DNA of 64,000 bases from Halorutilales archaeon Cl-col2-1. GTDB lineage: Archaea > Halobacteriota > Halobacteria > Halobacteriales > Afararchaeaceae. The stretch lies in NCBI GenBank assembly GCA_041891055.1, contig CP169074.1, forward strand, positions 256,001 through 320,000, given 5' to 3'. The position numbers and the translations under genes are program-made. Below the pieces are notes generated by a model that saw only the letters and a list, made by a program, of their open reading frames with translations, had not been told where the DNA came from and did not search any database. This document shows, piece after piece, positions 9,792 to 55,359 of the stretch; position 1 is the first letter of the stretch; the number at the start of each line of letters is the position of its first letter.

Positions 9792-10430
9792 TTACTTCTT
9801 CCTCAGGTACCACCACGCGAAGACGCCGAGTAGAACGACTACTCCCCCAGCGAAGAAGAGGACTCCCGGAGGAACCGTCTGTGACGCCTGCTGTGCTGTC
9901 TCAGCCCCCGCTTCTGTGGACTGTATTCCGAGCCCATCTCCTCCGGTGTCCTCCGTCCGTGGCGCAGGAGCCGAAGTCTGAGACTCGACTACCCACTGGA
10001 CACCGAGACTTACAGCGCCGAGTCCGAGTATGGCGGCGAATATACTTTTTAAGGCGTCCTTGATTCCCGATGTCGATGAGTCCTCCTCGCGCCCCACGAA
10101 GACTAAGAGTGGCTCCTCCGAGGGCGCGTATATACTCATCTCTCTGCCTTTCTCGGAGTACTTGGTGTCGGCGACACGGATCAGGTCGGCGTCCTCTAGC
10201 TTTCCGAGGTGGTAACGTGCGTTCTGCACCGTCGTGTCGGTCTCGGCGGCGATCTCCGACGGCGTAGATGGAGAGTCGTGTATCTCGGCGAGTATCTCAC
10301 GCGAGGTCTCCGACGAGAGTGCGTTTATGAGGGTGTCGGCGTCGTCACTGTCGACGCCCATGACACGCGGCTCTCCGTCCTGTTCTGACGACAGTTCGGT
10401 CTCAGACTCTGACCCGAATATGCTCGACAT
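9792..10430 (-). CDS. ArsR-type HTH regulator with C-terminal membrane anchors
   Basis: ALSSETSREIL...VQNARYHLGKL...YSEKGREM, followed by two hydrophobic segments. Confidence 0.8.
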   Translation of the reverse strand: MSSIFGSESETELSSEQDGEPRVMGVDSDDADTLINALSSETSREILAEIHDSPSTPSEIAAETDTTVQNARYHLGKLEDADLIRVADTKYSEKGREMSIYAPSEEPLLVFVGREEDSSTSGIKDALKSIFAAILGLGAVSLGVQWVVESQTSAPAPRTEDTGGDGLGIQSTEAGAETAQQASQTVPPGVLFFAGGVVVLLGVFAWWYLRKK

Positions 10431-10607
10431 AGGACTTGAATCTCTTCGAATATTACGGAGTCAATCTTAAGAGTTTTACCGTAGGCAGAACGAAATTCTA
10501 CTGGGAATGACTGTCATACATACTTCTACGGATCGGGTACGTGTGCCCGCGAGGATTACACACGCACACGGATGCAAGAACCAGACGGAGGCGGAGGTGG
10601 TTTCAAC

Positions 10608-41621: not shown

Positions 41622-44036
41622 ATGAGTCAGACTGACCCCGACGGCGACACTGACACCGACCCGTACGGCTGGGAGAACTACTTCCCGTACGACAAGGCTT
41701 ACGATGACCAGAGAGACGGCATAGAGTCAGCCGTCGATGTCGCACGTCGGAACGGCTTTCTCCTCTTAGAGGGTGCCTGTGGAACCGGAAAGACGCTCCT
41801 CTCACTCGCCGCGGGCTTGAGCCTCGTTAGAGACCCCACGTCGAGCTACAAACGTGTACTCGTACTCACGAGCGTCAAACAGCAGACGAAGCAGTTCGAG
41901 ACCGATCTCGCCGAGATAAACTCTTCTCTTCCCGACTCAGACGCGGTCGACTCGGTGACACTCGTCGGGAAGTCGGACGTCTGTCCCTACTCGCGCGAGG
42001 GAATCATCGAAGACGGTCTCTACTCAAAGTGCGAGGATCTGCGTGACGAGACGAGGAGACGTATCTACTCGTCGTCGCGTGACTCCGAGACTGCGGGAGG
42101 TGACAACGTCTCGAAGGCTATCTCGAACGCGGGTCAGATAATGACTCAACACGAGGCGAGGGTCGAGTCAGCTGGTGCTCCGACTCTCGAAACCGCAGGC
42201 GTCGAGTCGCCTTACTCGGAGGAAGTAGACGATGTCTGTCCCTTCTACGCTAGGTACGTCGCCGACACGGTCGACGACGACGCCGAGGTACTCCAACACG
42301 ACGGCGTCCTCACACCGAAGAGACTCGTCGCCGAGGGCGTCAAGAAAGGGACTTGTCCCCACTCGGCGATGGGCGAGATTCTCGACGAAGCCGAGGTTGT
42401 CGTGGGTAACTACCAGCATGCCTTCGATCCGGTTACGGTAGAAGCCTTCACCCGCGAGATAATCGACTCGTCGACTCTCGTCGTCTGTGACGAGGCTCAC
42501 ACCTTAGTCAACAAGGTACGTGAACAGCTCAGCTCTTCGGTGTCTTACACCCATATAGAGAGGGCGGAGAACGAGATAGACGACGTCATCTCTATGGTCT
42601 CAGACGAGAGCCCGAGACAAGACTCGGAGATACTACAAGCCGACACCGATCTCGCGGGCACTATACTCGACGAGAACGACGTCTCTGTCTCAGACCTCAG
42701 GAAAGCGAGAACCTTCCTCAGAGACCTACGTGCCGAGATAGACTCGGTCGTCACGAGCCATCTCGACTCCGAGATAGGAGGCTGGAGAAACGTCATAAGC
42801 GATCTCACGGTCACGGGCGACGAGTATGAGTACGAGATCCCGCTGAGATCGCCCGAAAAGCCCGACGAGGTCGACGAGATAACCCGGTCACTCGACTCTT
42901 ACGACGAAGGTGACTGGATGACGGTCGGACGTGTCGGCTGGGTCGTCGGAGGTGTCCTCGATAACGTCTACGAGTCACACGACTTCGACTCTATGAGAGC
43001 GGCACCCGTCGTCGGAAACCTCGTCCAGTCGTGGTACGCTAACGGTACGGGCGAGTACTTCCGACAGCTTGAGCTATCACCGAGGGATGACGTCTGGAGA
43101 CAGCCGTCACAGGACTGGAGGCAGGTCTATAAGGGAAGCTTGGTTCTCAGAAACTGTATCCCGAGCGAGGAGATACGTGACCGTCTCTCTGAGTTTGGGG
43201 GAGGCGTTCTGATGTCTGCGACACTCGAACCCATCGATGTCTTCCGTCACGAGATAGGCTTCGACTCCGAGGGCTTCGACAGAGACATAGAGGAAAAGAC
43301 CTACGGCCTCGACTTCCCCGAGGAGAACCGTGAGAGTCTCGCAGTCCGTACGCCCAAGTTCAAACACTCGAACCGAGGACCGCGTTTCGTCGACGGCGAG
43401 CCAAACACCGACACCGACGCGAGACGCGCTTGTGTGAGGACGACGGTCGACGTAGTCTCGAACACTCCCGGAAACGTCATGGTCGGGACGCCGTCTTACG
43501 CCGAGGCGGACTGGATGGCGGAGGTTCTGAGAGACAGAGACGACATCGACGCCGAGATACTCGTCGACGAGAGCACCGACGACGAGACGACACAGCGTCT
43601 CAAGTCGAGATTCTTCCGAGGCGACGACAAAGTCTTAGTCACGAGCGTCCTCGGGACACTCACAGAGGGCGTCGACTACGAGGGCGATAAACTCAGAGGC
43701 ATAGTCGTCTGTGGCGTGCCCCTCGCAGACACGTCGGGCGACTACTCAGAGGCGGTCGAGACGGCATACGGAAGAAGGTTCGGAGACGACTCGGCGTATG
43801 ACTACGCCTACACAGTCCCCGCTGTCAGAAAGGTGCGTCAGGCAGTCGGACGTGTCATAAGAGGTGACGACGAGGTAGGTATACGTGTGATCTGTGACGA
43901 GAGATACACGGAGGAACATCTCTGGGACTCGGTGCGTGAGTACTTCCCCGAGTACGAGAGGGACGAGTTCAAGCCCGTGAGTCCCGACATGGTAGATCTC
44001 GGTGTTAAGAGGTTCTGGGACTCACATGAAAAATGA
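41622..44036 (+). CDS. Rad3/XPD-family ATP-dependent DNA helicase
   Basis: Q motif YDDQ, EGACGTGKT, Fe-S cysteines, CDEAH, MSATL, TEGVDY and RQAVGRVIR. Confidence 0.9.
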   Translation: MSQTDPDGDTDTDPYGWENYFPYDKAYDDQRDGIESAVDVARRNGFLLLEGACGTGKTLLSLAAGLSLVRDPTSSYKRVLVLTSVKQQTKQFETDLAEINSSLPDSDAVDSVTLVGKSDVCPYSREGIIEDGLYSKCEDLRDETRRRIYSSSRDSETAGGDNVSKAISNAGQIMTQHEARVESAGAPTLETAGVESPYSEEVDDVCPFYARYVADTVDDDAEVLQHDGVLTPKRLVAEGVKKGTCPHSAMGEILDEAEVVVGNYQHAFDPVTVEAFTREIIDSSTLVVCDEAHTLVNKVREQLSSSVSYTHIERAENEIDDVISMVSDESPRQDSEILQADTDLAGTILDENDVSVSDLRKARTFLRDLRAEIDSVVTSHLDSEIGGWRNVISDLTVTGDEYEYEIPLRSPEKPDEVDEITRSLDSYDEGDWMTVGRVGWVVGGVLDNVYESHDFDSMRAAPVVGNLVQSWYANGTGEYFRQLELSPRDDVWRQPSQDWRQVYKGSLVLRNCIPSEEIRDRLSEFGGGVLMSATLEPIDVFRHEIGFDSEGFDRDIEEKTYGLDFPEENRESLAVRTPKFKHSNRGPRFVDGEPNTDTDARRACVRTTVDVVSNTPGNVMVGTPSYAEADWMAEVLRDRDDIDAEILVDESTDDETTQRLKSRFFRGDDKVLVTSVLGTLTEGVDYEGDKLRGIVVCGVPLADTSGDYSEAVETAYGRRFGDDSAYDYAYTVPAVRKVRQAVGRVIRGDDEVGIRVICDERYTEEHLWDSVREYFPEYERDEFKPVSPDMVDLGVKRFWDSHEK

Positions 44037-44041
44037 CATGA

Positions 44042-44710
44042 CTATCTACCTCTCTCGTCTCCGTATATGTCGACGTGGAGACGTGGCGAGAGACGGAATC
44101 CGCGTTCCTTACAGATCTCGGCTATCCATCTCGCTCTCTGTCTGACAGTCTCGGAGTCGGTTCCCTCTGGCATTAATACGACCTTCTCGTCGTCTGCTTC
44201 TACGTCTCCGAGTATCCCATCGATCTCCTCTAAGTCGTCCTCGTCGGTCACCACGAACTTGAGCTGGTAGTCGTAGTTCGATATCCATCTCTGTATGACG
44301 TCGGTGTCGATACGTCTCTTGTCGTGTCTCTCGTCCCAGTCGTCTCCGGTCTCAGGCGTCGAGTTCGAGAGCTTCGGAGACAGAGACATCAGGTCGGCGT
44401 CTATCTCCTCGTAGACTGTCGCGTTAGTCTCGACAGTCACGTGTCCGTCGAGCCTCTCACAGAGGACATCTATCTCGTCGTGTATGAGTGGCTCGCCTCC
44501 CGTCACGACGTAATGTGACGCGCCATAGCTCTCCGCCTCCTCGACGACCTCGTCGACCGTCATCTCGTCGCCCTCGGGGTTCCACGACGTGTAGGCGGAG
44601 TCACACCAGCTACACCGGAGGTTACAGCCCGACGTACGTATGAAGACGCTCGGGACTCCGACGAGACGTCCTTCTCCCTGTACCGAGTAGAATATCTCGC
44701 TTATGTACAT
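44042..44710 (-). CDS. queE: 7-carboxy-7-deazaguanine synthase
   Basis: Motifs EIFYSVQGEG, GCNLRCSWCD, TGGEP, ETN and SPRLH. Confidence 0.92.
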   Translation of the reverse strand: MYISEIFYSVQGEGRLVGVPSVFIRTSGCNLRCSWCDSAYTSWNPEGDEMTVDEVVEEAESYGASHYVVTGGEPLIHDEIDVLCERLDGHVTVETNATVYEEIDADLMSLSPKLSNSTPETGDDWDERHDKRRIDTDVIQRWISNYDYQLKFVVTDEDDLEEIDGILGDVEADDEKVVLMPEGTDSETVRQRARWIAEICKERGFRLSPRLHVDIYGDERGR

Positions 44711-45357
44711 GGGTCTTCGACACCCGCTTCCTCGAAGCCTCTCGCGCGTTCTTCACACGACGCACAGACGCCACAGGGCTCGTCGCTCGCCTGGTAACAC
44801 GACCACGTGTGCTCGAAGGGCACGCCGAGTTGGTCGCCTCTGCGTATTATCTCGGGCTTCTCGTACTCGACGACGGGACGTCTGACCTCGAAATCGGCTC
44901 TGTCAGTACCCTCTGAGAGCGCGGTCTCCATCGCGTCGGCGTACTCGTCGCGGCAGTCAGCGTATCCCTCGCGGTCGTCTAAGTTGGGACCGTACCAGAT
45001 ACTTGTCGCACCTTTCTTCTCTGCGACCCCCGCGGCTATCGAGAGAAAGACCGTGTTTCTCATCGGGACATACGACGTCGCGACCCCCTCGTCGTCTATG
45101 TGTTCGGAGAGATCTGTCGAAGACTCGGTGAGCCCCTCGGAGAACTCCGAGAAGACGTCGGTGAGGTCGAACTCGATGAGGTCAACGTCGTAGTAGTCAG
45201 TCAGACGCCGTGCGCAGTCGATCTCCTTCTCCTCCGTAAGCTGTCCGTACGAGAAATGGACTCCGACTGTCTCTCCACCTGCGTCTTCTTCGACCGCCTC
45301 GGCGAGAGTGACACCACTGTCTATACCACCCGAGAGTAAGACGACGTTCTGAGCCAT
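44701..45357 (-). CDS. queC: 7-cyano-7-deazaguanine synthase
   Basis: Motifs LSGGIDS, YVPMRN, YADCR and TWSCY...CGVCASC. Confidence 0.94.
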   Translation of the reverse strand: MAQNVVLLSGGIDSGVTLAEAVEEDAGGETVGVHFSYGQLTEEKEIDCARRLTDYYDVDLIEFDLTDVFSEFSEGLTESSTDLSEHIDDEGVATSYVPMRNTVFLSIAAGVAEKKGATSIWYGPNLDDREGYADCRDEYADAMETALSEGTDRADFEVRRPVVEYEKPEIIRRGDQLGVPFEHTWSCYQASDEPCGVCASCEERARGFEEAGVEDPCT

Positions 45358-45358
45358 C

Positions 45359-45544
45359 TCAGTCGTCCCCCTCGGTCTCGTCTATCCTTCCCCTTCTCCT
45401 GTCGACCTCGTCCATCTGGTCGAGCATCTTCCTCAGAGAGCTCCTGACGGCGTCCGACATAGAGACGAACTTACGGTCGTCTCCGACGTGTTCCTCGACG
45501 TCCTCTAAGAGCTCACGCGGGACGTCGACGCTTATCTTGGGCAT
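45359..45544 (-). CDS. Ribbon-helix-helix (CopG/MetJ) protein
   Basis: MPKISVDVP...SMSDAVRSSLR. First gene of the que operon, with an AT-rich TATA region upstream. Confidence 0.82.
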   Translation of the reverse strand: MPKISVDVPRELLEDVEEHVGDDRKFVSMSDAVRSSLRKMLDQMDEVDRRRGRIDETEGDD

Positions 45545-45593: not shown

Positions 45594-46289
45594 TCAGTCC
45601 GCGACTGCTGTGACGATATGTACGACCAAGACAACACCGGTCGCAAGGGTAAGCCAGATATGAACTGTGCGCCACTTACTTAGGACGACTTTGTTCGATA
45701 TATCACGTATTCGTCCCACGATCTCGGCGGTCTCGTCTCCTCTTCCGAGACGCATTACGTGTCTGTGTATACGTCTTCCGTATACGCCGCTGATCACCTC
45801 TACTCCCAACAGAATACCTACTAGGAGACCCGTTTCTTCCCACTCCTCGACGAAGACAAAATGAGGGAGAGTCAGAGCCGTTCCGGCGAGCATCGTCCAC
45901 TCGTGAGCCTGTAAAAGATTCCTCCTGTACTTCGACGGGACTACTGAGAGACGTTTTCCCGCCGAGTAGCCCAAGACGCCGACGACGAGTACTGTCACGC
46001 CAATCTCGACTAAGCCAATATACGGTGCTTCGTTAGTCTCACCGCCGAGCCCCCACCAGTCAGGGAGTAGACTCACTCCCTCCTCGCTTTCTTCCTCGAA
46101 CTCCTCACCTTCTTCCTCTCCGAACTCCTGAAGCTGATACTCGTCTACGGAGCCCGAGTCTGTGAACTCCAGTACACTCAGACTGTTCGATCCGTCGGAT
46201 GTATCGACATGACCAGAAACAGACAGTCCAACTGCCAACGCGCTAACGAGTAGACCTGCTACTGCGATCTTTTTTGGTGTAACCTTCAT
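45594..46289 (-). CDS. Membrane protein with cytochrome-b-like His pairs and an acidic N-terminal loop
   Basis: Signal/TM segment, Glu-rich stretch, then TM helices with H-x13-H twice (HEWTMLAGTALTLPH, HIWLTLATGVVLVVH). Confidence 0.7.
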   Translation of the reverse strand: MKVTPKKIAVAGLLVSALAVGLSVSGHVDTSDGSNSLSVLEFTDSGSVDEYQLQEFGEEEGEEFEEESEEGVSLLPDWWGLGGETNEAPYIGLVEIGVTVLVVGVLGYSAGKRLSVVPSKYRRNLLQAHEWTMLAGTALTLPHFVFVEEWEETGLLVGILLGVEVISGVYGRRIHRHVMRLGRGDETAEIVGRIRDISNKVVLSKWRTVHIWLTLATGVVLVVHIVTAVAD

Positions 46290-46325
46290 GTTCTGAATAC
46301 CGGTGTTGTTTGAGAAAAGAATTCA

Positions 46326-46405
46326 CGTACAGAAGTCGAATCTTTCGAGAAAGCCTTTCGATGACTGTACGAAGTTTCGAGCGGTGTACGCGAAGCTGTA
46401 TATTT
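46326..46405. promoter_or_regulatory. Divergent promoter with three TTCGA-N4-TGTACG operator-like sites
   Basis: Minus-strand copy at 46326-46340. Plus-strand copies at 46357-46371 and 46376-46390, directly before GTATATTT. Confidence 0.7.
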
Positions 46406-46429
46406 GGGTACTCCTTCTCGAAGACTGTA

Positions 46430-46780
46430 ATGAGAGTTCCAGTACCCAGGAACAGCCTCGTCGTGATGGCGCTGATAGGCGCAGTTCTGACGGGAGGGAT
46501 AGCCTACGGTCTCGCTACTACAGACTCGGCGAACACAGGAGCCAATGCGGGTCAGACGGTGTCTCAGGAGTCGACAGTCTCAAACGGTACAGTAACGAAG
46601 CTGTCTTCAGGCACTCCTACGCCGAACCAGAACTTCACTCCCAACGTCAAACAGCAGACGGGTTACTCTGAGGAGTATGAGGAAGAATACGATGAAGAAT
46701 ACGAAGAGGAGGAGTATGAAGAGGAAGAGTACGAGGGAGAGCGCAGAGAAGAAAACAGAGAGGGCGAAGAGAGAGACTGA
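46430..46780 (+). CDS. Small exported or membrane-anchored protein with Glu/Tyr-repeat tail
   Basis: ATG 46430 follows a TATA-like box. Hydrophobic N-terminus, Thr/Ser/Asn linker and EEYEEEYDEEYEEEEY tail. Ends 2 bp before apbE. Confidence 0.7.
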   Translation: MRVPVPRNSLVVMALIGAVLTGGIAYGLATTDSANTGANAGQTVSQESTVSNGTVTKLSSGTPTPNQNFTPNVKQQTGYSEEYEEEYDEEYEEEEYEEEEYEGERREENREGEERD

Positions 46781-46782
46781 CA

Positions 46783-47724
46783 ATGTCGATTTCAGCCGCG
46801 TCCTTAGGTTTACGTTCTAAGCTCGGCGAGTCGGAGGTAGTCTTTGAGTGCTGTGATACAGAATTCCGCCTGAGGGCTAAGGGTCTACGTGCGTCGAGAG
46901 CCGTCTCCGAGGCGCGAGGTAAGGCAGAGACACTCGAATCCGAACTCGATGCCTTCGACGAGACGAGTGCTGTCTCGTGTCTCAACTCCGACGGATGGGT
47001 AGAGAGCTACCACGTCCGTAGAGTAGTCGAACGTGGGATAGAGTACTACTGCCTCACGGACGGAGTACTCGACATACGTCACGGCGAGGTCGAGAGACAG
47101 ATCAAGTCCTACATACGCGGTGAGAGATCTGAGGTGGATGTAGGAAGTCTCGACGGGGTCGAGGGGGATATGGAGGATGATGTACTTATTGAGGATGACG
47201 AAGTCAGAGTCTCGCGTGACATTAAACTCGATCTCAACTCTCTCGCAAAGGGATATATAGTCGACGCCGCGCTCGAAGAACTCGACCGGCTCGGTGTCGA
47301 GGGATTCGTCGATGGAGGCGGGGACATAGCCACTACGTATCCGATTAGGGTAGGCATCGAGAGCCCGTACCCCTCCGAGAAGCCGTTGAAGAAAATCAAG
47401 ACTGACTGGAGTATAGCCACGTCGGGAGGGTACAGACGCAGACGTTCAGACGTTGACCACATTTACAGACCTAGATCTGACACCGATACCAATACTGACA
47501 GTGACGCGGGCAAAGTTGAGGTTGGATCGAAGAACAGATCCGTAACGGTCGTGTCTGAACGAGACTGTACCGAAGCCGATGCCCTAGCCACAGCAGTCTC
47601 GGCATTAGACCCCGACGAGGCTATCGAGTTGATCGAGGAACGTGAGGGCACCGAGGCATTTCTCGTCCACTCGGGCGTTTTAAAAAAGACATCCGGGTTC
47701 GAGGAACATGAAGCAGAAACATAG
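46783..47724 (+). CDS. apbE: FAD:protein FMN transferase (ApbE family)
   Basis: Motifs DLNSLAKGYIVD, DGGGDI, IATSGGYRR, DHIYRP and SVTVV...ADALATA. No signal peptide is visible. Confidence 0.88.
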   Translation: MSISAASLGLRSKLGESEVVFECCDTEFRLRAKGLRASRAVSEARGKAETLESELDAFDETSAVSCLNSDGWVESYHVRRVVERGIEYYCLTDGVLDIRHGEVERQIKSYIRGERSEVDVGSLDGVEGDMEDDVLIEDDEVRVSRDIKLDLNSLAKGYIVDAALEELDRLGVEGFVDGGGDIATTYPIRVGIESPYPSEKPLKKIKTDWSIATSGGYRRRRSDVDHIYRPRSDTDTNTDSDAGKVEVGSKNRSVTVVSERDCTEADALATAVSALDPDEAIELIEEREGTEAFLVHSGVLKKTSGFEEHEAET

Positions 47725-47995
47725 GAGAGCTGTGACTTTCGCCGCCGTAGTTGTCCTAATACTATCGGTAGCTGTCACGTGGCAGGTGGGTGGCTACCGG
47801 GAGACACAGGCGGAAGAGTCGAAGACGGCGGATCTGGTCAACAGCCAGGTTGAGGAACGTCACTCCACCAACGACTATGACGGAGACGGAATCCCTGATG
47901 CGTCTGACCGATGTCCGACACGTCCTGAGACACAGAACGGCTTCGAGGACTCCGACGGCTGTCCAGACATAGTCACGACCACGGGGGCGTCTTAA
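47708..47995 (+). CDS. Small anchored protein with a thrombospondin-type-3-like Ca-binding repeat and C-terminal TGAS
   Basis: N-terminus HRRAVTF plus hydrophobic helix, then DYDGDGIPDASDRCP...DSDGCPD, ending DIVTTTGAS. Overlaps both neighbours. Confidence 0.75.
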   Translation: MKQKHRRAVTFAAVVVLILSVAVTWQVGGYRETQAEESKTADLVNSQVEERHSTNDYDGDGIPDASDRCPTRPETQNGFEDSDGCPDIVTTTGAS

Positions 47996-48549
47996 TGAGT
48001 GTTGTGACTTTCGAGACCCTCTGGTATATCGACAGGGCGGCGGGACTCGTCTCGTATGTCTCGCTATATCTCGCCGTACTCACGGGAGTCTTCTATAACA
48101 CGAAGAGGTTCGGAGAGCTACACAGAGCCGCCGACAGGGTACACGTCCCCATCTCAGTCTTTGCCACACTAACCATTCTCGGACACGGAATCGTGGGAGC
48201 CGTCGACACCTTAGCCATCTTAGACGGCGCGGTTCCGTCCCCCAATTACCCTATAAACTTCTTCGTCAACGGAGTCCTCGTCGGGGTCGGAGGTCTACTA
48301 CTCCTCGTGGTCGCAGTCGTTGCCTTCCTCGACCCGAGACGTTTCGACAGACCTTACAGTCCCCGTGTCGTTCACGCCTTCGCGTATGGAGGATATGCCT
48401 TCGCAACGATACATGCTGTCGCAGTCGGAACTGAGATTAGAAGACTACTCCGCGTTTCGATACTGAGTTCGGTGGCTTTCGTGGTCTACCTCTTGATCGT
48501 GAGATCTCTGAGTGCCGAACTCGGTAAAAATGACAAAAGGACGGCTTAA
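47995..48549 (+). CDS. Ferric-reductase-like (MsrQ-like) transmembrane heme b protein
   Basis: LWYIDRAAGLVSY start and His pairs HVPISVFATLTILGH and HAFAYGGYAFATIH..GT. Coupled by TAATG. Confidence 0.8.
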   Translation: MSVVTFETLWYIDRAAGLVSYVSLYLAVLTGVFYNTKRFGELHRAADRVHVPISVFATLTILGHGIVGAVDTLAILDGAVPSPNYPINFFVNGVLVGVGGLLLLVVAVVAFLDPRRFDRPYSPRVVHAFAYGGYAFATIHAVAVGTEIRRLLRVSILSSVAFVVYLLIVRSLSAELGKNDKRTA

Positions 48550-48557
48550 GTATTATA

Positions 48558-49492
48558 GGCTCTGGTGAACCACTAGACTACGTTGGATTAAGCCACTAAT
48601 GCAAAGGAGATGAAGCGGGAAGTTTTCGGTGACATGTCCAAAATCTCCCGCTTCACTGATAGAGTCGTGACATTAGCTAAAAACGCTGTTGGTGGTCGGA
48701 GCGAAGCCGCCGCCCCAGAGCAGGGTGGCGGCTTCGCGGATTACGCCATCGTTTCTCTCCACTGTCTACGGATTTACTTGGAGAAATCTTACAGAGAAGC
48801 ACTCGATCTGTTGAGCGAGATGCCAAGAATCCTTGAGGAGATCGGCCTCGAAGAGGACGATCTCCCTCACCATTCAACCCTAGTCAAAGCATTCGATAGG
48901 ATAGAGATGGGTGTATGGAGAGTACTTCTCCGTCTCTCTTCGGAACTACACGACAACACCGGCCACACTGCTATGGACTCTACTTACTTCGACCGAGAAA
49001 ACGCTAGCAAACACTACTGCCGTAGGACGAATTACCGTGTCCAGACACTCAAAGCTACAGCCCTCGTCGACACAGAAACTCAAGCAGTCCTTGACCTTCA
49101 CTGCACGACTGAGAAACGCCATGATACTCAGCTCGGCTTGCAGGTCGCACTGCGGAACGCAGGCGACCTGCATACCCTCGCTGCCGACAAAGGCTATGAC
49201 TGGATGAAACTACGTGAAAAATTACGAGAAGAAGACGTAAGACCACTCATCAAACACCGGGAGTTCCGACCCATCGATCAGGCGCATAACGCCAGAATCG
49301 ATGGGTCTCTCTATGGTCAAAGATCCATGTCTGAAACCGTCTTCTCAAACATCAAGCGCACGCTCGGCACTGCCGTGCGTGCGCGTGCCTGGTACAGAGA
49401 ATTTCGTGAACTCGTCCTGATCTGCTCTGTCTATAACATCAAACATGCCGTAAAACAGTAAATCAAGTTACGTATGGTGATTCACCAAAGCC
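48558..49492 (+). mobile_element. IS5-family insertion sequence (ISH9-like), 935 bp
   Basis: IRs GGCTCTGGTGAACCAC and GGCTTTGGTGAATCAC (revcomp). Perfect 8-bp TSD GTATTATA at 48550-48557 and 49493-49500. Confidence 0.92.
48634..49461 (+). CDS. IS5-family DDE transposase (intact)
   Basis: MSKISRFT start, PHHSTL, AMDSTYF, ADKGYD and YGQRSMSETVFSNIKR. Confidence 0.92.
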   Translation: MSKISRFTDRVVTLAKNAVGGRSEAAAPEQGGGFADYAIVSLHCLRIYLEKSYREALDLLSEMPRILEEIGLEEDDLPHHSTLVKAFDRIEMGVWRVLLRLSSELHDNTGHTAMDSTYFDRENASKHYCRRTNYRVQTLKATALVDTETQAVLDLHCTTEKRHDTQLGLQVALRNAGDLHTLAADKGYDWMKLREKLREEDVRPLIKHREFRPIDQAHNARIDGSLYGQRSMSETVFSNIKRTLGTAVRARAWYREFRELVLICSVYNIKHAVKQ

Positions 49493-49505
49493 GTATTATA
49501 TCATA

Positions 49506-50024
49506 TCAGTAGCCCTCCCAGAGACCCAGCATCTTATCGACGAGGCGGTCGGAGAAGCTCTTTCTGTGTACTGTGTAGAGACGTCTGATCTTGTCAGGCT
49601 CCTTGAGTGAGTAGAGTACGCTACGACCCTCCCTCTCCTTCTCGACGACGTCTTCTTCTTCGAGACGTGAGAGGTGCCACGATATAGTCGAGCGTGACTT
49701 GTCTATCCTCTCGCTAAGCTCGGAGGTTGAGAGCGCGCCCTCGTCGGCTAGATGTCCTATTATGCGCCGCGAGTACTCACGTCTCAGAGCGTTCATAACT
49801 GCTTTGTCCTCGGATTCGAAAGAATCTGATGTGTAGTAACGCGTGTAGTCGCCATCGTCTGATACTTCTACGAGACCCTCGTCTTCGAGCTGTCTCAGCT
49901 GATACTGGAGAGTACCCTGTGCGTAGTCGAGTTCTCGGAGTAGCTCGCGGAAATGGATGCCGGGAGTTGAGTCTATCTCCATGTATATGTCGCGTCTCGA
50001 CTTCAGATCGGGCTCGTCGTCCAT
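49506..50024 (-). CDS. Double winged-helix (ArsR-like) transcriptional regulator
   Basis: PGIHFRELLREL...GTLQYQL and a second HTH, STSELSERIDKSRSTISWHLSRL. Confidence 0.85.
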   Translation of the reverse strand: MDDEPDLKSRRDIYMEIDSTPGIHFRELLRELDYAQGTLQYQLRQLEDEGLVEVSDDGDYTRYYTSDSFESEDKAVMNALRREYSRRIIGHLADEGALSTSELSERIDKSRSTISWHLSRLEEEDVVEKEREGRSVLYSLKEPDKIRRLYTVHRKSFSDRLVDKMLGLWEGY

Positions 50025-50028
50025 TTTC

Positions 50029-50319
50029 TTACTCCTGAATTATAGCTATGAAGAAGAGGACTAATCCTAAGACTATGAAGAAAGACGATAGATGCTCTAC
50101 TGTTTCTAGAGCGAATGTGGTTCTGAGTGTAGTCTCGACGAAGACAATGAGACCACGGAGTCCGAACGCTAAGTACGCCCCTGTGACGATGAGCATACTC
50201 TTGTCCCTCTCTCTTCTCCAAGTCAGGAAGCTCAGGACTCCGAGAGTTAGAGACAGGAGGAGTATGCCGAAGCTCAGAACCTGTTCTATCTGACCGGGTG
50301 TAATCTGAAGTACTACCAT
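50029..50319 (-). CDS. Small three-TM membrane protein co-transcribed with the regulator
   Basis: Three hydrophobic helices with WRRERD loop and a TM His. Ends 4 bp before the regulator start. Confidence 0.75.
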   Translation of the reverse strand: MVVLQITPGQIEQVLSFGILLLSLTLGVLSFLTWRRERDKSMLIVTGAYLAFGLRGLIVFVETTLRTTFALETVEHLSSFFIVLGLVLFFIAIIQE

Positions 50320-50424
50320 CTTTTCGAGTATTTCTTAGGCAGTCTCAAAAGTATATGGTCGACGAGGACTGGTCTACTGATGCACAGAAATACAGTTTTC
50401 ATCATGTTCTCAAAAGACACGCCT

Positions 50425-50474
50425 AAAGTTACGGCTTCGCGTACATACCTCGAATCCTCGTACAGGAGTCGAAA
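50425..50474 (-). promoter_or_regulatory. Tandem TTCGA-N4-TGTACG sites upstream of the membrane-protein/regulator pair
   Basis: CGTACATACCTCGAA (50440-50454) and CGTACAGGAGTCGAA (50459-50473), with the same 19-bp spacing and downstream CGAAGCYGTA as at 46357-46400. Confidence 0.7.
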
Positions 50475-50504: not shown

Positions 50505-53186
50505 TTAGTCGTCGGCTCCGTCACGTCTTCCGAAGATTCCTATGAACTGTCTCTGGAATCCTATCTCAAGGACTGTGAAGACTGCCGTCATTCCTATTAT
50601 GTACATCCAGTGGCTGAGTCCTATTGGAACGACCTCGAATACCGACGCAAGTGGCGTGTAAAGGAGGAGTAGCTGAGCGACGAATGCCACTCCCACGGTA
50701 ACCGAGAGCCAGATGTTAGAGAAGATACTGAGTCCATAGTCCCGCCTTACTATCTGGAACATAACTATCTCGAACATCGCGAGTGATGTGAAGAGAACCG
50801 TCTGTGCGAGACGGAAATCGTCTATATAGGCGAAGAAGAGCTGGAGAAACAGGATCGCGGCTAAGGATCCTGTGAGGAGTACCATCGAGACGATCTTTCT
50901 GTCGATTATTGACGCGTTAGGGTCACGCGGGTCACGGTTCATAACACCCGGAACGCTCTCGTCGGCGGCGAGAGCCATCGCTGGAGGCCCGTCGGTGGCG
51001 AAGTTGACCCAAAGGATCATGACGGCTGTGAGGACTACGGTGTCTGACCCTCTGAAGTACTCGGGAAAGAGGAGCCCTCCTATGATTGAACCCAGAAAGA
51101 CGAACATCACCTCGGCTGAGTTGGTCGAGAGGAGGTAGTTGGTGACCTTACGTATGTTGTCGAATATAGTCCTTCCTTCCTTTATGGCGTCACGTATAGT
51201 CACGAAGTTGTCGTCTAGGAGGACTATGTCGCTGCTCTTCTTCGCGACGTCGGTTCCCTGCTGACCCATAGCCACTCCTACGTCGGCGTTCTTGAGAGCG
51301 GGAGCATCGTTGACACCGTCGCCCGTCATAGCGACGTGGAGCCCGCTGTCCTGAAGAGCCTTGAGTATACGCACCTTATGGCTCGGCGAGACTCTTGCGA
51401 ATATCTCTGTATCGGTGACGGCGTCACGTAGCTCGTCGTCATCCATCGATTCGACCTCGCGTCCCGTGACAGCCTTCTCGGGGTTGAAGCCTAGACTCTC
51501 TCCTATCGCCCTCGCCGTCTTTATGTCGTCCCCCGTAGCCATGACGACATGTATACCCGCGGTTCGGCAGTCCTCGACCGCCTCCTTGACCTCGTCGCGC
51601 GGCGGGTCTATCATAGCCTGTAATCCGAGGAAGACCATGCCCGACTCTATCTCGTCGTCGTCAGCCTCGGGATTGTCGACTTCCTTCACCGCGAATCCAA
51701 GGACTCGGAGTGCGTCACCCGCGTACTCTGAGACCTTCTCCTCGATCTCGTCGTGTCTTTCGTCGTCGAGTTCGACGAACTCGTCGTCTACGAGTACTCG
51801 GTCGCATCTATCGAGTACAGTCTCAGGTGCGCCTTTCATGTAGGCATTCGAGCCGTCTGTGATAGCAGTCATCCGTTTACGGCTCGAAGAGAAGGGTATC
51901 GAACGCTCACGTTCCTCGGGCGCGTCTATGCCTGCCTTCCTCGCGGCTACGAGGAGTGCGGTCTCGGTGGGGTCTCCGTCGAAGCCGTCCTCAGTCTCGT
52001 CGGTGTTGTTCGAGTAGACGCCACATCGGAGTATCTCGCCTATTTCCTCGGGGTCTATCTCGCCGCCGTCTGTGCCGTAGAACTCTCCCTCAGTCTCGGT
52101 TCCGACTCCCGTCACCGAGACCTCACTACCGTTCGAGTAGATTCTACGGACTGTCATAGTTCCCTGTGTCAGAGTCCCCGTTTTGTCGGAGACTATGTAG
52201 TTGACCGATCCGAGCGACTCGACGACAGGGAGACGTCTAACGAGTGCGTTTCTCTCGAACATCCTACGCGAGCCGAGTGCGAGAGAGAAGGTGACTATCG
52301 CCGGGAGTGCCTCGGGAATCGCGGCGACGACGAGTCCGACCGAGAGGAGGAAGAGTGTTATCCAGTCAGTACCTGTTACGAGCCACTGTATTACGGCTAT
52401 GACTGCGATGAATCCCGATACGAGGTATCCGAGCCTCTTTCCCATCTCATCGACTTCTTTCTGGAAGGGCGTCTTCTCGTCTGAGGCAAGCTGGAGTTCG
52501 TCAGCTATCCCGCCTATTTCGGTGTCCATTCCCGTCCGTGTCACAACCGCAACGCCGCGCCCACGTACGACGTCGGTTCCCCTGAAGACTGTGTTTTCGC
52601 GCTCGGCGACCGTGGCGTCGGCATCGACGCGTTCGGTAGTCTTACTGACCTGTTCACTCTCGCCCGTGAGAGCCGACTCGGTGGTTTCGAGGGACTCAGC
52701 TTCGAGGAGACGTGCGTCGGCTGGAACCGAGTCGCCCTGTTCGAGTAGTATTATGTCGCCGGGGACTACCTCTTTCGAGTCTATCTCCTCCGTCTCACCT
52801 CCACGTCTCACCTTCGCAGTCGGCGTGGCTAGCTCCATGAGAGACGAGATAGCCCTCTCAGCACGGTAGTCCTGGTAGAAGCCGAAGAGACCGTTCCCGA
52901 CAAGTATTAGGGAGATGATACCCGCCTCCCCCCATCTCGGACTTTCGTTCGGGAAGAAGCCAACCCCGACTGAGAGCACGACGGCTATCAGGAGTATGTA
53001 GACGAGATAGTCACGGAACTGGTCGACGAGTATCTCGACTGCTGAGGGACCGTCCCCCTCCTCTATCTTGTTCTCACCCTCCTTTTCGAGGCGTTCCTCC
53101 GCCTCCTCCGACGTCAGACCCTCTCTCCGACTCTCCATCTCTGATAGAACTTCTTCTCGGGTACACGCGTGTCCCTCGACCTTCAT
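50505..53186 (-). CDS. P2A-type (Ca2+-transporting-like) P-type ATPase
   Basis: Motifs TGES, IPEALP, DKTGT, KGAPE, GDGVND, TNSAE and LWVNFATDG. Confidence 0.9.
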   Translation of the reverse strand: MKVEGHACTREEVLSEMESRREGLTSEEAEERLEKEGENKIEEGDGPSAVEILVDQFRDYLVYILLIAVVLSVGVGFFPNESPRWGEAGIISLILVGNGLFGFYQDYRAERAISSLMELATPTAKVRRGGETEEIDSKEVVPGDIILLEQGDSVPADARLLEAESLETTESALTGESEQVSKTTERVDADATVAERENTVFRGTDVVRGRGVAVVTRTGMDTEIGGIADELQLASDEKTPFQKEVDEMGKRLGYLVSGFIAVIAVIQWLVTGTDWITLFLLSVGLVVAAIPEALPAIVTFSLALGSRRMFERNALVRRLPVVESLGSVNYIVSDKTGTLTQGTMTVRRIYSNGSEVSVTGVGTETEGEFYGTDGGEIDPEEIGEILRCGVYSNNTDETEDGFDGDPTETALLVAARKAGIDAPEERERSIPFSSSRKRMTAITDGSNAYMKGAPETVLDRCDRVLVDDEFVELDDERHDEIEEKVSEYAGDALRVLGFAVKEVDNPEADDDEIESGMVFLGLQAMIDPPRDEVKEAVEDCRTAGIHVVMATGDDIKTARAIGESLGFNPEKAVTGREVESMDDDELRDAVTDTEIFARVSPSHKVRILKALQDSGLHVAMTGDGVNDAPALKNADVGVAMGQQGTDVAKKSSDIVLLDDNFVTIRDAIKEGRTIFDNIRKVTNYLLSTNSAEVMFVFLGSIIGGLLFPEYFRGSDTVVLTAVMILWVNFATDGPPAMALAADESVPGVMNRDPRDPNASIIDRKIVSMVLLTGSLAAILFLQLFFAYIDDFRLAQTVLFTSLAMFEIVMFQIVRRDYGLSIFSNIWLSVTVGVAFVAQLLLLYTPLASVFEVVPIGLSHWMYIIGMTAVFTVLEIGFQRQFIGIFGRRDGADD

Positions 53187-53349
53187 GTTACACAGTACGT
53201 CTCAGGCAGTCTTCGAAGCTTGAATATCTGCGTAGAATCCGAATCCCCAGAATAGTCGGAGCTTGATCCCATAATCGAAGGTTATACTGGTGGTACAAAT
53301 GAGTTTATATGTTCAGTATTTACAACTAAACAAAATCTCGGATTCCGTC

Positions 53350-53907
53350 TTACAGTATCGCAGATTCGGGGTTCTCAGCTTCGAATACCTCGTCGGCTTT
53401 CTCACGTGCTCTGTCGAGTTCGTCTTCGAGGTTTGAGTACTCCTTGCTGTTGTAGAGCTCCGTAGACGACAGCGAGTTCTCAAGGGTCTTCTTTATCTCC
53501 GAGAGGCTGTAACTTCTCCTCGTGGCGTCGTCGTACGAGTCGAGTGACAGGACGTTCTCAACAGCCTCAGTAAGCTCGTGTCTCTCCACGGGCTTGACGA
53601 CGTAGTCGTCTATATCCATCTCGACGACATCGAGGCTCGGACTCACAGCTGTGACTACGACTACCCGCGTGTCGAGGCAGTTGTCACGTATCTCCTCGAG
53701 TATCTCGTCGCCCGAGATGTCGGGCATACGTCTGTCGAGAACAACGAGATCGATCCCCTCGTCGATCTTTTCGAGGGCTTCAGTTCCCGTGTACGCGACC
53801 CTGACGTCGTAGGAGTCGAGCCAGACGGAGTAGAGATCGACTATCTCCTCCTCGTCGTCGACTATGAGTACAGTAGGCTTGTCACCTCCCTCGCCGTCGG
53901 TGTCCAT
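53350..53907 (-). CDS. Response regulator with HalX-like C-terminus
   Basis: LIVDDE, LDRRMP and DDYVVKPV, with a helical SLSEIKKTLE...YSNLEDEL tail. Confidence 0.85.
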   Translation of the reverse strand: MDTDGEGGDKPTVLIVDDEEEIVDLYSVWLDSYDVRVAYTGTEALEKIDEGIDLVVLDRRMPDISGDEILEEIRDNCLDTRVVVVTAVSPSLDVVEMDIDDYVVKPVERHELTEAVENVLSLDSYDDATRRSYSLSEIKKTLENSLSSTELYNSKEYSNLEDELDRAREKADEVFEAENPESAIL

Positions 53908-53946
53908 GCACGAAGTACTTTGTGTCTCCGAAAATACCTTTCGTTT

Positions 53947-55359
53947 CTACCCGTGTCTCTCGAATATTTCGACGGTCTTCTTCCTCTCCTCATCGTGGTT
54001 GAGTATCGGGGACGGGTAATCGATCTCGTCGAACTTTGGAGACTCGTAGGGACGATGTATGTAGTCGTCGACATCACGTAGCTCCGGAATCCACTGTCTT
54101 ATGTACTCGCCGTCGGGGTCGTACTTCTCGCCCTGTGTCCATGGGTTGAAGACCCTGAAGTAGGGCTGGGCGTCTGTTCCTACCGAGTACGCCCACTGTA
54201 TCCCGCCGACCATCGCGGGAGTGTCGGCGTCGACTAGATGCTTCTTGAGGTGGTCGTGGAGACGTCTCCAGTCGGCGCGAAGATCCTTCGCCGCGAAGCT
54301 CGCTGTCACCATACGTGGACGGTTGTGCATCCATCCCGTCTGCTTAAGCTGACGCATTCCGGCGTCGACAAACGGGAACCCCGTCTCTCCCTCGACAAAT
54401 GCCCCCCAGTCGTCGTCTTCACAGCCCCAGTCTATCGAGCGGTACTTCTCTATGAAAGCCTTCTCGGTCGTCTCGGGGTGGTTCCAGAGCATCTGGAAGT
54501 AGAAGTCTCTCCACGCGAGCTCCTCCTGCCAGACTCTCGCTCCGTCGTCGTCCTTGTCCTCCCCCTCCGCTTCTTCCCTAACCCTCTCCGCCGCCCAGAA
54601 AGCCTCGCGCACCGAGACTGTCCCGAACTTAAGATGGGGCGATAGCTTCGAGGTAGAGTCGAGTGCGGGGTAGTCTCTCTCCTCGTCATACGTGTCTATG
54701 CAGTCTACGAAATCTTCGAGTCTCTTGGTACCTGCCTGTCTTCCACCCTCGAAAACAGAACTGTCTGAATCCGAATCGGAGACTCCGATTTGACCGAGGC
54801 TCGGAAGCTCCGAAGACTCTACTTCGGGGGTCACGAAGCCCTCTGGAGACACGGGCTCGGGCTTCTCGATGTCGAACCACTTGTCACTGTAATACGAGTA
54901 GACTTGGTAGGGATCACCTTTCTGTGTCGTGATCTCGGTCTTTTCTGAGATCACAACGTCCTTGAATCCCTCCGACTCGACTTCGAGTTCGCCGAGTCTG
55001 TCCTCATTACGTCTCGCGTAAGGAGAGTAGTTGTTGTTGTAGTAGACCCTCTCGGCTTCTACCTCGTCACAGACGTCTCCGATCTCCTCGATAGGGTCGC
55101 CGCGTCTCACGACGAGTCTCTCGTCGTCTCTGGCGTCGAATTTATCTTCGAGTTCGGAGAGAGAGTCGTGCCAGAACCTGAGTCTCTTGTCTCGCGTACT
55201 TTCCGAGTTCAGAAGCACGTCGTCGACGACGTAGACAGGGACGACCTCGTCGTGTCTCCGCGCCGCCTCGACGAGTGCAGTGTTGTCGTACCTCCTCAAC
55301 GACCTGCGTATCCAGACGACGCCTGCCGTACCGTCCATGCCGATCCGTGGATCTGACAC
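53947..55359 (-). CDS. phr: Deoxyribodipyrimidine photolyase (class I)
   Basis: Motifs WIRRSLRRYDN, TSKLSPHLKFG, ELAWRDFY, TGFPFVDAGMRQL, WMHNRPRM and FRVFNP. Confidence 0.92.
   Translation of the reverse strand: MSDPRIGMDGTAGVVWIRRSLRRYDNTALVEAARRHDEVVPVYVVDDVLLNSESTRDKRLRFWHDSLSELEDKFDARDDERLVVRRGDPIEEIGDVCDEVEAERVYYNNNYSPYARRNEDRLGELEVESEGFKDVVISEKTEITTQKGDPYQVYSYYSDKWFDIEKPEPVSPEGFVTPEVESSELPSLGQIGVSDSDSDSSVFEGGRQAGTKRLEDFVDCIDTYDEERDYPALDSTSKLSPHLKFGTVSVREAFWAAERVREEAEGEDKDDDGARVWQEELAWRDFYFQMLWNHPETTEKAFIEKYRSIDWGCEDDDWGAFVEGETGFPFVDAGMRQLKQTGWMHNRPRMVTASFAAKDLRADWRRLHDHLKKHLVDADTPAMVGGIQWAYSVGTDAQPYFRVFNPWTQGEKYDPDGEYIRQWIPELRDVDDYIHRPYESPKFDEIDYPSPILNHDEERKKTVEIFERHG

Follow-up and report, generated by a model that had tools for sequence, protein, structure and literature searches.

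Organization of the apbE locus

ApbE-based flavinylation, in which flavin mononucleotide (FMN) is attached to proteins, is widely used by bacteria to carry electrons out of the cytoplasm. Here we describe a gene cassette built around a gene for ApbE in a haloarchaeon, Halorutilales archaeon Cl-col2-1, and weigh the evidence that it encodes a small membrane system for flavin-dependent electron transfer. The host genome (2,064,627 bp, 99.5% complete) encodes one ApbE only. Its gene is located in a 64,000-nucleotide stretch of contig CP169074.1 (positions 256,001 to 320,000 of the forward strand), which we call the window; coordinates are those of the window unless another genome or locus is named.

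The core of the cassette is an operon of four genes on the plus strand, which encode an acidic Glu/Tyr-rich protein, ApbE (46783-47724), a small protein of 95 residues with the C-terminus TTGAS (47708-47995), and a membrane protein of 184 residues (47995-48549). The apbE gene starts 2 nt past the preceding stop codon, the gene for the small protein overlaps apbE by 17 nt, and the gene for the 184-residue protein overlaps that for the small protein by 1 nt, as expected of the tightly coupled operon described in an initial annotation of the window. The open reading frame (ORF) of the acidic protein extends from 46310 to 46780. We assigned its start to 46430 (46430-46780) because of the position of the promoter and because the orthologues all begin with MR(V/I)P(V/L)P, which is matched by the window protein when it is read from 46430 (MRVPVP...). 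Upstream, a divergent gene on the minus strand encodes a membrane protein of 231 residues, referred to here as cytb231 (45594-46289). Downstream, two minus-strand genes converge on the end of the operon and encode a double winged-helix regulator (49506-50024) and a 96-residue protein with three transmembrane (TM) segments, the 3-TM protein (50029-50319). The ORF map, together with the family matches of the regulator given below, agrees with the initial annotation on this convergent arrangement.

Distribution and conservation of the cassette

The distribution of the cassette was surveyed in 401 sampled Halobacteriales genomes representing 18 families and 117 genera. With the ApbE protein as the query, matches were found in 46 genomes from 8 families and 26 genera, and the PF02424 model picked the same 46 genomes. 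Of the 49 ApbE matches in Halobacteriales, 48 are of the cassette type. A profile of the 184-residue protein detected 45 genomes, 44 of which are ApbE-positive, and the two ApbE-positive genomes that lack this protein contain ApbE fragments only. Around 43 other loci we retrieved ∼15 kb and searched it with the window proteins (tblastn); the 44 copies or loci referred to below are these 43 and the window. ApbE was found in all 43, whereas the 184-residue protein, the regulator, and the 3-TM gene were each found in 42. The small protein was detected in 39 loci by tblastn and in three more through ORF listings, for a total of 42, and in 42 of the 43 a small TM protein lies between the genes for ApbE and the 184-residue protein. 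The acidic protein was detected in 35 loci by tblastn, and cytb231 is adjacent in six. The order of acidic protein, ApbE, small protein, and 184-residue protein, with the convergent regulator and 3-TM gene, is maintained in the 43 loci. The initial annotation had named a failure of the genes to be conserved together as a reason to discard its proposal; ApbE, the 184-residue protein, a small TM protein, the regulator, and the 3-TM gene are in fact each present in 42-43 of the 43 other loci.

A GTDB-wide scan with the ApbE alignment returned 80 loci, 78 of which contain matches to both ApbE and the 184-residue protein. All but two of the 80 are labeled as haloarchaea. The exceptions are metagenome-assembled genomes (MAGs), one labeled "uncultured cyanobacterium" (L084) and the other Thermoplasmatota (L158). 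In the latter, a 5-kb contig carries a cassette-type ApbE (41% identity) followed by a small protein that ends in ...HTGAS. These two copies could reflect errors of binning or labeling, or transfer beyond haloarchaea. Many copies of the cassette are located on plasmids or megaplasmids (including L083, L098, L099, L110, L115, L130, L146, and L160), and the cassette can be present two or three times in a strain; three copies are spread over two plasmids in one strain and over two contigs in another. Carriers include members of cultivable genera such as Haloferax denitrificans, Natrinema, and Halorubrum species. Taken together, the comparative data indicate that the six genes form a conserved, compact, and patchily distributed cassette, which is probably mobile.

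Clustering of all ORFs in the retrieved loci revealed no further recurrent neighbor, with any other family present in nine loci at most. A functional theme in the flanks was considered and rejected, since an ABC exporter, an acyl-CoA synthetase, heavy-metal/Ca-type P-ATPases, and a short-chain fatty acid transporter were each found in no more than nine loci.

The cassette ApbE

The window ApbE scores 119.1 bits against PF02424 (cut-off 25.6) over profile positions 3-265 of 266, and it aligns to the solved ApbE structures 5mgy (E 1.5e-10) and 6nxi (E 1.6e-8). The blocks DxNxxAKGY, GGGD, ATSGxYRR, HxYxP (H226), and EADALAT show conservation of 90% or more in 43 orthologues, and the cassette proteins have a conserved CCDT start. 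At the level of a family match, then, the operon does contain an ApbE flavin transferase, as first proposed. Profile searches found no homologue of FMN_bind (PF04205) or of NqrB/RnfD (PF03116) anywhere in the host genome, which extends to the whole genome an absence that had been noted for the locus.

None of the 44 ApbE N-termini contains a signal peptide, a TM segment, or a twin-arginine (Tat) motif, and by sequence criteria the cassette ApbE is a cytoplasmic form. Cytosolic ApbEs exist (PMC12052999). The extracytosolic flavinylation that was envisaged at the outset is not borne out as stated, as all 44 copies are signal-less. An acceptor outside the cytoplasm combined with a signal-less ApbE requires that flavinylation precede export or that ApbE reach the exterior by another export route.

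The single non-cassette ApbE in the 401 genomes (locus L075, G283:C6:96000-109000, ORFs 3616-5916 and ∼5900-6883) starts with the twin-arginine motif RRSFL, in contrast to the signal-less cassette ApbE. Its neighbor, a NosR-like protein of 766 residues, has a canonical D-A-L-T-G-A-S site together with Cys-rich TM and ferredoxin-like regions. The same genome, G283, additionally carries two copies of the cassette.

A small membrane protein with a conserved C-terminal motif

The minimal motif recognized by ApbE is D-x-x-[S/T]-G-A-[S/T], a stretch of seven residues in which FMN is attached to the last; it works best at a protein terminus, and replacement of the leading Asp by Ala has a minor effect on flavinylation (PMC12052999). 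The small protein consists of an N-terminal TM helix and two thrombospondin-type-3-like repeats (DxDxDGxxDxxDxCP ... DGCPD), followed by the C-terminal T-G-A-S (residues 92-95). The repeats score 24.6 bits against TSP_3 (PF02412), just under the cut-off of 25, and many relatives carry a precomputed PF02412 annotation. Apart from this near-match, the protein lacks a known acceptor fold (FMN_bind, NqrB/RnfD, DUF2271, and others). Across 39 sequences, the invariant residues are D56, D58, D60, D67, C69, P70, G84, C85, P86, V89, T91, T92, A94, and S95, and the C-terminus has the invariant form V-x-T-T-x-A-S. All 120 of the best database relatives (clustered at 90% identity) terminate in TGAS; those with a named source are all haloarchaeal and are annotated as hypothetical or as "thrombospondin type 3 repeat-containing." Among the 78 GTDB-wide loci, the C-terminus is [ST]GAS in 69, T-[H/R/Q/S]-A-S in eight, and different in one. 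The small anchored protein ending in TGAS that was first noticed in the window is, accordingly, one member of a family that shares this end.

The motif persists where the rest of the protein does not. In two divergent cassettes, L067 (...RTGAS) and L071 (...ETGAS), the same slot is occupied by a small TM protein that keeps the tail and has zero Ca repeats, zero cysteines, and no detectable similarity to the window protein. The initial description of a Ca-repeat protein therefore fits the window, and the repeats themselves, being lost in L067 and L071, are dispensable. In the host genome, only four of 8,499 mechanically called ORFs of at least 60 residues have a [ST]GA[ST] C-terminus, and one of these four ORFs is that of the small protein, which runs across the stop codon of apbE. 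The most economical interpretation is that ApbE has the small protein as its substrate, with FMN predicted on the terminal Ser.

An alternative is that ApbE does not flavinylate the small protein. It would act instead as a flavin adenine dinucleotide (FAD) pyrophosphatase or in flavin trafficking for the membrane protein, or its target would be elsewhere, and the ...T-x-A-S end would have a different role, for example in contacting the cytochrome or a processing enzyme. Certain members of the ApbE family are FAD pyrophosphatases and not transferases (PMC4767422), and the replacement of the motif Gly by H, R, Q, or S in eight of the 78 loci would sit well with such a role. Six ORFs elsewhere in the genome also carry the full D-x-x-[ST]-G-A-[ST] motif and could be regarded as other targets; however, ∼15 such ORFs are expected by composition (a rough estimate for ∼1.28 million ORF residues), so that six represent no excess over chance, and none of them is near ApbE. 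Moreover, the [ST]GAS end is the sole feature kept in small-protein variants that are otherwise dissimilar, the gene that bears it overlaps the ApbE stop codon, and ApbE and the cassette co-occur almost 1:1. With these points set against it, we regard the alternative as improbable.

Several variants of the small protein were observed. In L062 it is 154 residues long (3889-4350) and contains two Ca-repeat modules, only the last of which ends in TTGAS; the acidic protein of that locus (5209-5868) has 220 residues, with internal repetition of a DEYDRAGDHD unit. Lengths of 153-159 residues are also seen in six of the 120 database relatives of the small protein. The plasmid copy L160 encodes a small protein that ends in ...RPRGP without the motif and may have decayed. 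Tat export of the small protein was considered and rejected: the RR pair is present in the window and in one genus, most other sequences have KQR at this position, and some have no basic residue.

The 184-residue membrane protein

In 43 of 43 aligned orthologues of the 184-residue protein, H50, H64, H127, and H140 are invariant. The spacings of 14 (H50/H64) and 13 (H127/H140) residues are those of NOX2, in which the heme ligands are His101/115 on TM3 and His209/222 on TM5 (PMC3591440). The ferric reductase domain (FRD) superfamily, to which NOX2 belongs, also includes shorter proteins. Most of these short forms (YedZ/MsrQ and STEAP) retain only two or three of the four His, and in YedZ and STEAP the first canonical His is replaced by a conserved Arg (PMC3591440). 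The label MsrQ-like is incorrect for the 184-residue protein because all four His are kept, including the invariant H50 at the position where YedZ and STEAP have Arg.

Structural comparisons are compatible with the same superfamily. The AlphaFold2 (AF2) model has five helices and a mean predicted local distance difference test score (pLDDT) of 78.9. The nearest named clusters in the ESM Atlas are PF01794 proteins of ∼180 residues from Actinomycetota (0.91 by features, TM-score 0.75-0.80 by structure), and a VIA structure search returned STEAP1 with Z 10.8 (root mean square deviation 4.3, 153 residues aligned) and STEAP4 with Z 10.2. Several results count against the assignment. The score against PF01794 (Ferric_reduct) is 17 bits (E 0.0063), below the cut-off of 28; five helices are predicted, as opposed to six in FRD proteins; STEAP1, NOX5, and STEAP4 take ranks 1-9 in Foldseek with weak E values of 0.013-0.22; and in the VIA search unrelated helical bundles also reach Z 10-13, alongside STEAP1 and STEAP4. 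The modeled fold is consistent with membership in the FRD superfamily and not decisive. With moderate confidence, we assign the 184-residue protein as a short four-His member of the superfamily and predict that it is a di-heme cytochrome b. Of the ferric-reductase-like diheme protein described initially, the conserved His pairs and their NOX2 spacing are upheld in all 43 sequences; the PF01794 score taken by itself remains below threshold.

Model of the complex and orientation of the tail

Prediction of the complex between the small protein and the 184-residue protein, one of the checks put forward in the initial annotation, was carried out with two hemes. Three runs gave ipSAE values of 0.76, 0.77, and 0.79, and the best of three controls gave 0.00. 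At least 67% of the contacts were common to the runs, and the pLDDT of the partner was at least 59. When the mark was calibrated, 58 of 80 solved complexes and 2 of 110 mismatched pairs attained it, counts that hold only roughly here, as our own alignments were used and heme was included. In the model, the helix of the small protein runs in the same direction as FRD helix 4 (H127 to H140) and opposite to helix 5, and the residues that follow it contact loop 84-89 of the 184-residue protein. The model joins the two proteins (0.77 compared to 0.00 for the control), with the C-terminal side of the small protein at the outer heme. The side on which the helix exits is that of loop 71-88 and H64/H140; in the FRD consensus the loop on this side contains no K or R, whereas the loops beside H50 and H127 are basic.

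The acidic protein provides a second view of the topology. It has a hydrophobic helix at the N-terminus, then a conserved P-x-P-N-x-x-F-x-P-x-V segment, and an acidic tail that, in 32 orthologues, contains 50-76% Asp+Glu, one to nine Tyr, and zero to nine His, with His present in the majority. In all 32, K+R are found on the N side of the helix alone, which predicts an N-in/C-out orientation. The exported Glu/Tyr-rich protein of the initial annotation is therefore retained as an anchored or exported protein. In one genus without a separate acidic gene, an acidic His/Tyr stretch is located inside the small protein, ahead of a ...TTT[R/Q/H]AS end.

Based on the complex model, the net charge of the small protein (+1.8 on the N side and -1.3 on the C side, which favors N-in), the fusion to an acidic stretch whose free-standing counterpart is predicted N-in/C-out, and the two invariant Cys and calcium-type repeats, which fit an extracytoplasmic domain, the tail of the small protein seems to face outward.

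The opposite orientation would yield an inward-facing flavocytochrome of the NOX/STEAP kind. In this case, the tag would stay in the cytoplasm, its FMN would be the point at which electrons from NAD(P)H or a flavin reductase enter and pass to the inner heme, and the outer heme would deliver them to an acceptor on the acidic protein. This placement would accord with FRD relatives such as NOX and STEAP, in which the flavin is on the cytoplasmic side. MsrQ has been termed a flavohemoprotein (PMC12525009). An inward tag would also match an ApbE that is predicted to be cytoplasmic in 44 of 44 copies, unlike the Tat-signal ApbE of G283, and it is compatible with the even count of K+R around the TM helix of the small protein. 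The modeled helix, however, leaves the membrane where loop 71-88 and H64/H140 lie, a side that is free of K and R in the consensus. The net charge likewise favors N-in, the invariant Cys and Ca-type repeats suit an extracytoplasmic domain, and the fusion puts the tail together with an acidic stretch whose separate form is predicted to be N-in/C-out in all 32 sequences. We regard the inward orientation as unlikely.

A cassette-specific operator and its putative regulator

The initial annotation had reported one motif common to the three upstream regions, and five copies of this motif, TTCGA-N4-TG[GT]ACG (15 bp), were found to mark all three promoter regions of the cassette. The divergent promoter region (46326-46390, both strands) contains three copies. 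One is on the minus strand and faces cytb231 (46326-46340), and two on the plus strand form a tandem pair, 19 bp apart (46357-46371 and 46376-46390), that faces the operon and is followed directly on the 3' side by a TATATTT box at ∼46400. Two further tandem copies on the minus strand (50440-50454 and 50459-50473) are located 5' of the 3-TM/regulator operon. Genome-wide, the strict motif has seven matches in 2,064,627 bp, compared to ∼1.9 expected from base composition, and five of the seven are at the cassette. Across the 44 loci (642,538 bp), 105 of 110 strict matches are within 250 bp upstream of cassette genes. The strict motif precedes the first operon gene in 35 of 36 loci (in 26 of them as two copies), the cytb231 gene in 7 of 7, and the 3-TM gene in 23 of 43; by inspection, many of the remaining 3-TM promoters carry a TGAACG variant. 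From this distribution, the operator is predicted to define a cassette-specific regulon.

Outside the cassette, the host genome contains single matches alone, at window position 38596 and at G000:C1:1489257. The former was considered as a further member of the regulon and rejected, as it is a single copy inside an ORF.

The putative binder of the operator is likely the double winged-helix regulator. It matches PF24266 (HVO_0163-type N-terminal helix-turn-helix (HTH)) with 77.3 bits (cut-off 31) and the ArsR-type family NF033788 with 80.4 bits (cut-off 55), the second domain being an ArsR/SmtB-type HTH. The protein contains zero Cys and no obvious metal site in its sequence, and it is encoded by the best-conserved gene of the cassette (55-68% identity). 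The 3-TM protein, which has no match to any Pfam or NCBIfam family, contains a conserved WRRER sequence after TM1 as well as conserved E62, E72, and H76, and is possibly a membrane sensor or a partner of the regulator.

The presence of these two proteins raises the possibility that the cassette is a signaling, redox-sensing, or repair device and not a metal reductase. The flavin and the acidic tail would report external or membrane redox state to the 3-TM protein and the regulator, or would supply electrons to a substrate protein, in the way that MsrQ serves MsrP. The cassette invariably has its own regulator and a membrane partner, no transporter for Fe(II) or another metal is conserved beside the cassette, and the regulator lacks Cys and an obvious metal site, all of which could be accommodated by such a device. 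On the other hand, autoregulated accessory operons often carry their own regulator without being sensors, and the cassette holds no periplasmic molybdoenzyme reductase of the MsrP type. The acidic tails are also rich in Tyr, His, and carboxylates. From general coordination chemistry, such carboxylate, phenolate, and imidazole ligands are expected to be a good fit for Fe(III) and other hard metal cations. We consider a sensing or repair function quite improbable.

Proposed electron-transfer module

The hypothesis that we favor, by a narrow balance of probability, is that the cassette assembles a transmembrane electron-transfer module composed of an FRD cytochrome and a partner that is FMN-tagged at its C-terminus, with an outward path for electrons. 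In this module, two b hemes would be stacked on the four invariant His of the 184-residue protein, and the TM helix of the small protein would pack against helices 4 and 5 and leave the membrane on the side of the outer heme. The cassette ApbE would move FMN from FAD to the hydroxyl of the last residue of the small protein (...[S/T]-G-A-S-COOH), which would place the flavin on a flexible terminal tag and not in an FMN-binding domain. Given that the cassette ApbE is signal-less, the tag would most likely be flavinylated in the cytoplasm, and the C-terminal tail of ∼65 residues would then be translocated post-translationally; since the terminal tag of a 95-residue protein leaves the ribosome only at termination, there would be a window for prior flavinylation. 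Electrons would enter from the cytoplasmic side, with menaquinol or a soluble reductase as donor candidates, and would cross the two hemes to the tethered FMN. The FMN would in turn reduce an external acceptor held by the acidic Tyr/His-rich protein; Fe(III) or another metal cation is the most plausible candidate. The regulator and its 3-TM partner would control both operons, and the optional cytb231, through the tandem operator sites beside the TATA box. It should be noted that the order of export, the direction of electron flow, the donor, and the acceptor are what we infer from the arrangement as a whole, and the composition of the acidic tail is the sole hint at an acceptor.

Several observations weigh against this hypothesis, in addition to those given above for the FRD assignment. 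ApbE is signal-less in 44 of 44 copies, whereas the acceptor end is predicted to be outside, and we know of no precedent for flavinylation followed by export. K+R are balanced in the TM flanks of the small protein (means of 2.1 and 2.15), which leaves its topology ambiguous by this measure. Position -6 of the small-protein motif is an invariant Val (V89) and not Asp. The replacements of the motif Gly occur in at least three lineages, and a change of Gly to Ala in the ApbE motif is reported to lower flavinylation (PMC12052999). Lastly, no donor, acceptor, or transporter gene is conserved beside the cassette, the neighbors of which vary among the 43 loci. Comparative genomics and modeling together lend support to the original idea of a flavinylation-based electron-transfer system, in a form that differs from the first proposal in four respects: ApbE is predicted to be cytoplasmic, the cytochrome is a short FRD protein with four His, the second cytochrome is optional, and the Ca repeats are dispensable.

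A more specific version of the hypothesis is tentative and, in our estimate, rather doubtful. In this version, the small protein is a natural "flavin tag": the cytoplasmic ApbE esterifies FMN to the C-terminal Ser, the tail is then translocated, and the flavin comes to rest above the two-heme cytochrome, which would make the cassette a minimal plasmid-borne device for extracellular electron transfer or reductive metal acquisition that operates with no export of FAD. If true, the tag would represent the first class of ApbE substrates without a flavin-binding fold. If the terminal Ser does carry FMN, a bare peptide tag would join the known ApbE substrates, the engineered flavin-tag would have a natural precedent, and the question would arise as to how a cofactor that is added in the cytoplasm gets outside. 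The cassette would also be a candidate surface reductase for haloarchaea in brines, where iron is scarcely soluble. As the cassette is small, often plasmid-borne, self-regulated, and present in cultivable genera, these proposals are directly testable.

Relation to known flavinylation and heme systems

The closest known counterparts are the bacterial MsrQ-like flavinylation clusters of Meheust et al. 2021 (PMC8238504), which comprise apbE, an FMN-bind protein, and a PF01794 cytochrome, number 1,797, and are mainly from Actinobacteria; a subset was proposed to function as assimilatory iron reductases (PMC8238504). Like those clusters, the cassette combines apbE with an FRD membrane protein, here predicted to bind heme, and a membrane partner, here a putative flavinylation substrate, and transmembrane electron transfer to covalent FMN is proposed for both. 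Unlike the bacterial systems as reported, the haloarchaeal cassette resides in a genome without FMN-bind (PF04205), and the residue proposed to accept FMN is the C-terminal one of a small TM protein. Its membrane protein has five predicted helices, scores below the PF01794 cut-off, and has no NAD-binding domain. The cassette is also archaeal and has its own regulator, operator, and acidic partner. From the sequences, the cassette appears to be related to the MsrQ-like systems, and a C-terminal flavin tag modified by a signal-less ApbE would, if confirmed, be new in kind.

In the same survey, archaea are given only as a count, with exported flavinylation components in 63 genomes (PMC8238504). 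Its filters, as given, were a signal peptide on ApbE or FMN-bind, a Pfam E value of at most 0.001, and a PF01794 gene within five genes (PMC8238504). The gene for the 184-residue protein is close to apbE, with one gene between them, yet it misses this definition of an MsrQ-like system with E 0.0063 (above 0.001) and a signal-less ApbE. The haloarchaeal cassette would have been excluded by the signal-peptide and E-value filters. Our literature searches found no paper on a haloarchaeal ApbE cassette; the supplementary cluster tables of PMC8238504 might list such loci.

Compared to the FRD superfamily of NOX, FRE, STEAP, and YedZ/MsrQ proteins (Zhang et al. 2013, PMC3591440), the 184-residue protein shares the four His, the spacings of 14 and 13, and, with the short forms, an architecture restricted to the TM domain. 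It differs from the short forms as described in that work in that it retains all four His, has one predicted helix fewer, and has marginal sequence similarity. Only four archaeal members of the superfamily were known to that study (PMC3591440).

With respect to the tag, the engineered "flavin-tag" of Tong et al. 2021, as cited in PMC12052999, indicates that a terminal ApbE motif of seven residues suffices for full flavinylation without a flavin-binding fold. That tag is man-made, and the haloarchaeal family would use the same principle naturally, with Val at -6 and a variable Gly. The cytoplasmic ApbE of Klebsiella pneumoniae (PMC12052999) is signal-less, like that of the cassette; its substrate is a soluble cytoplasmic fumarate reductase with an FMN-binding domain, whereas the end of the cassette substrate is predicted to be extracytoplasmic. 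The substrates listed by Huang et al. 2024 (10.1101/2024.03.13.584918) are FMN-bind, NqrB/RnfD, DUF2271, flavodoxin, and FMN-reductase, and a bare terminal tag is not in that list. The same work reports that DUF4405, PepSY-like, and FezC proteins, which are small multi-His TM proteins from apbE neighborhoods, bind heme b. The cassette-associated cytb231 is conceptually akin to these cytochromes. It is unlike them in that it has no Pfam family, contains four TM helices after a disordered acidic stretch, and is only sometimes located beside apbE.

The accessory protein cytb231

The cytb231 protein consists of a signal or anchor helix, the disordered acidic stretch, a DWWGLGGE sequence with an invariant WWGLG core, and the four TM helices, which in the AF2 model (pLDDT 70.6) span residues 88-114, 119-146, 148-183, and 189-230. 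In 32 aligned sequences, H129, H143, and H175 are invariant and H210 and H224 are at least 90% conserved, so that the pairs H129/H143 and H210/H224 are each 14 residues apart. Searches of Pfam and NCBIfam gave zero matches. The best Foldseek match, cytochrome b6, is not significant (E 0.72), and the ESM Atlas returned only unnamed clusters at a chance level of 0.80-0.82. The 36 database relatives are all hypothetical haloarchaeal proteins. Homology to the 184-residue protein was considered and is not detectable (BLASTP E 0.45).

Twelve of the 401 genomes encode cytb231, and ten of these are ApbE-positive. The gene adjoins the cassette in the window and in six of the 43 other loci, and around five remote copies no operator was found within the 2.6-4.5 kb retrieved. 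The protein is an optional accessory and not a core part of the cassette. The second cytochrome-b-like gene of the initial annotation is divergent and encodes His pairs as described; no family match supports the name, and the association with the cassette is confined to the loci listed. A TGAS sequence in cytb231 was considered as a flavinylation site and rejected, as it is present in 9 of 34 family members and the window protein has EGVS. In four close orthologues, ...DETGAS is located just ahead of DWWGLGGE.

The IS5 insertion and flanking genes

An IS5-family element of 935 bp (48558-49492) with imperfect inverted ends GGCT(C/T)TGGTGAA is located between the convergent gene ends and leaves both neighboring ORFs intact. 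Its transposase gene (48610-49461, plus strand) encodes a protein that scores 250.5 bits against NF033579 (cut-off 140). An 8-bp target-site duplication, GTATTATA, flanks the element at 48550 and 49493, and the element with its repeats covers 48550-49500. In a genome of the same genus (G001), the site is empty and the convergent stop codons are 6 nt apart. The insertion is recent because the G001 site is uninterrupted. The inverted ends, the duplication, and the empty site agree with the initial view of a later IS5 between two convergent operons.

Upstream of the cassette, the genes at 41622-45544 encode a Rad3/XPD-type helicase (Helicase_C_2, DEAD_2), a radical-SAM protein, QueC (190 bits), and a 61-residue ORF with no family match. 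These genes are kept in the sister genome, and their functions are unrelated to the cassette. In one genome (L006), an HMA-domain P1B-type heavy-metal ATPase gene (8891-11482) is located immediately 5' of the operon on the same strand; the arrangement is not recurrent and is a weak hint at a metal link. Downstream of the cassette in the window (50505-55359) are genes for a P2-type cation ATPase (893 residues, Cation_ATPase_N and Cation_ATPase_C), a receiver-HalX response regulator, and a DNA photolyase. The P2-type ATPase adjoins the cassette in the genus of the window, and it is present at one further locus (L052) with 49% identity.

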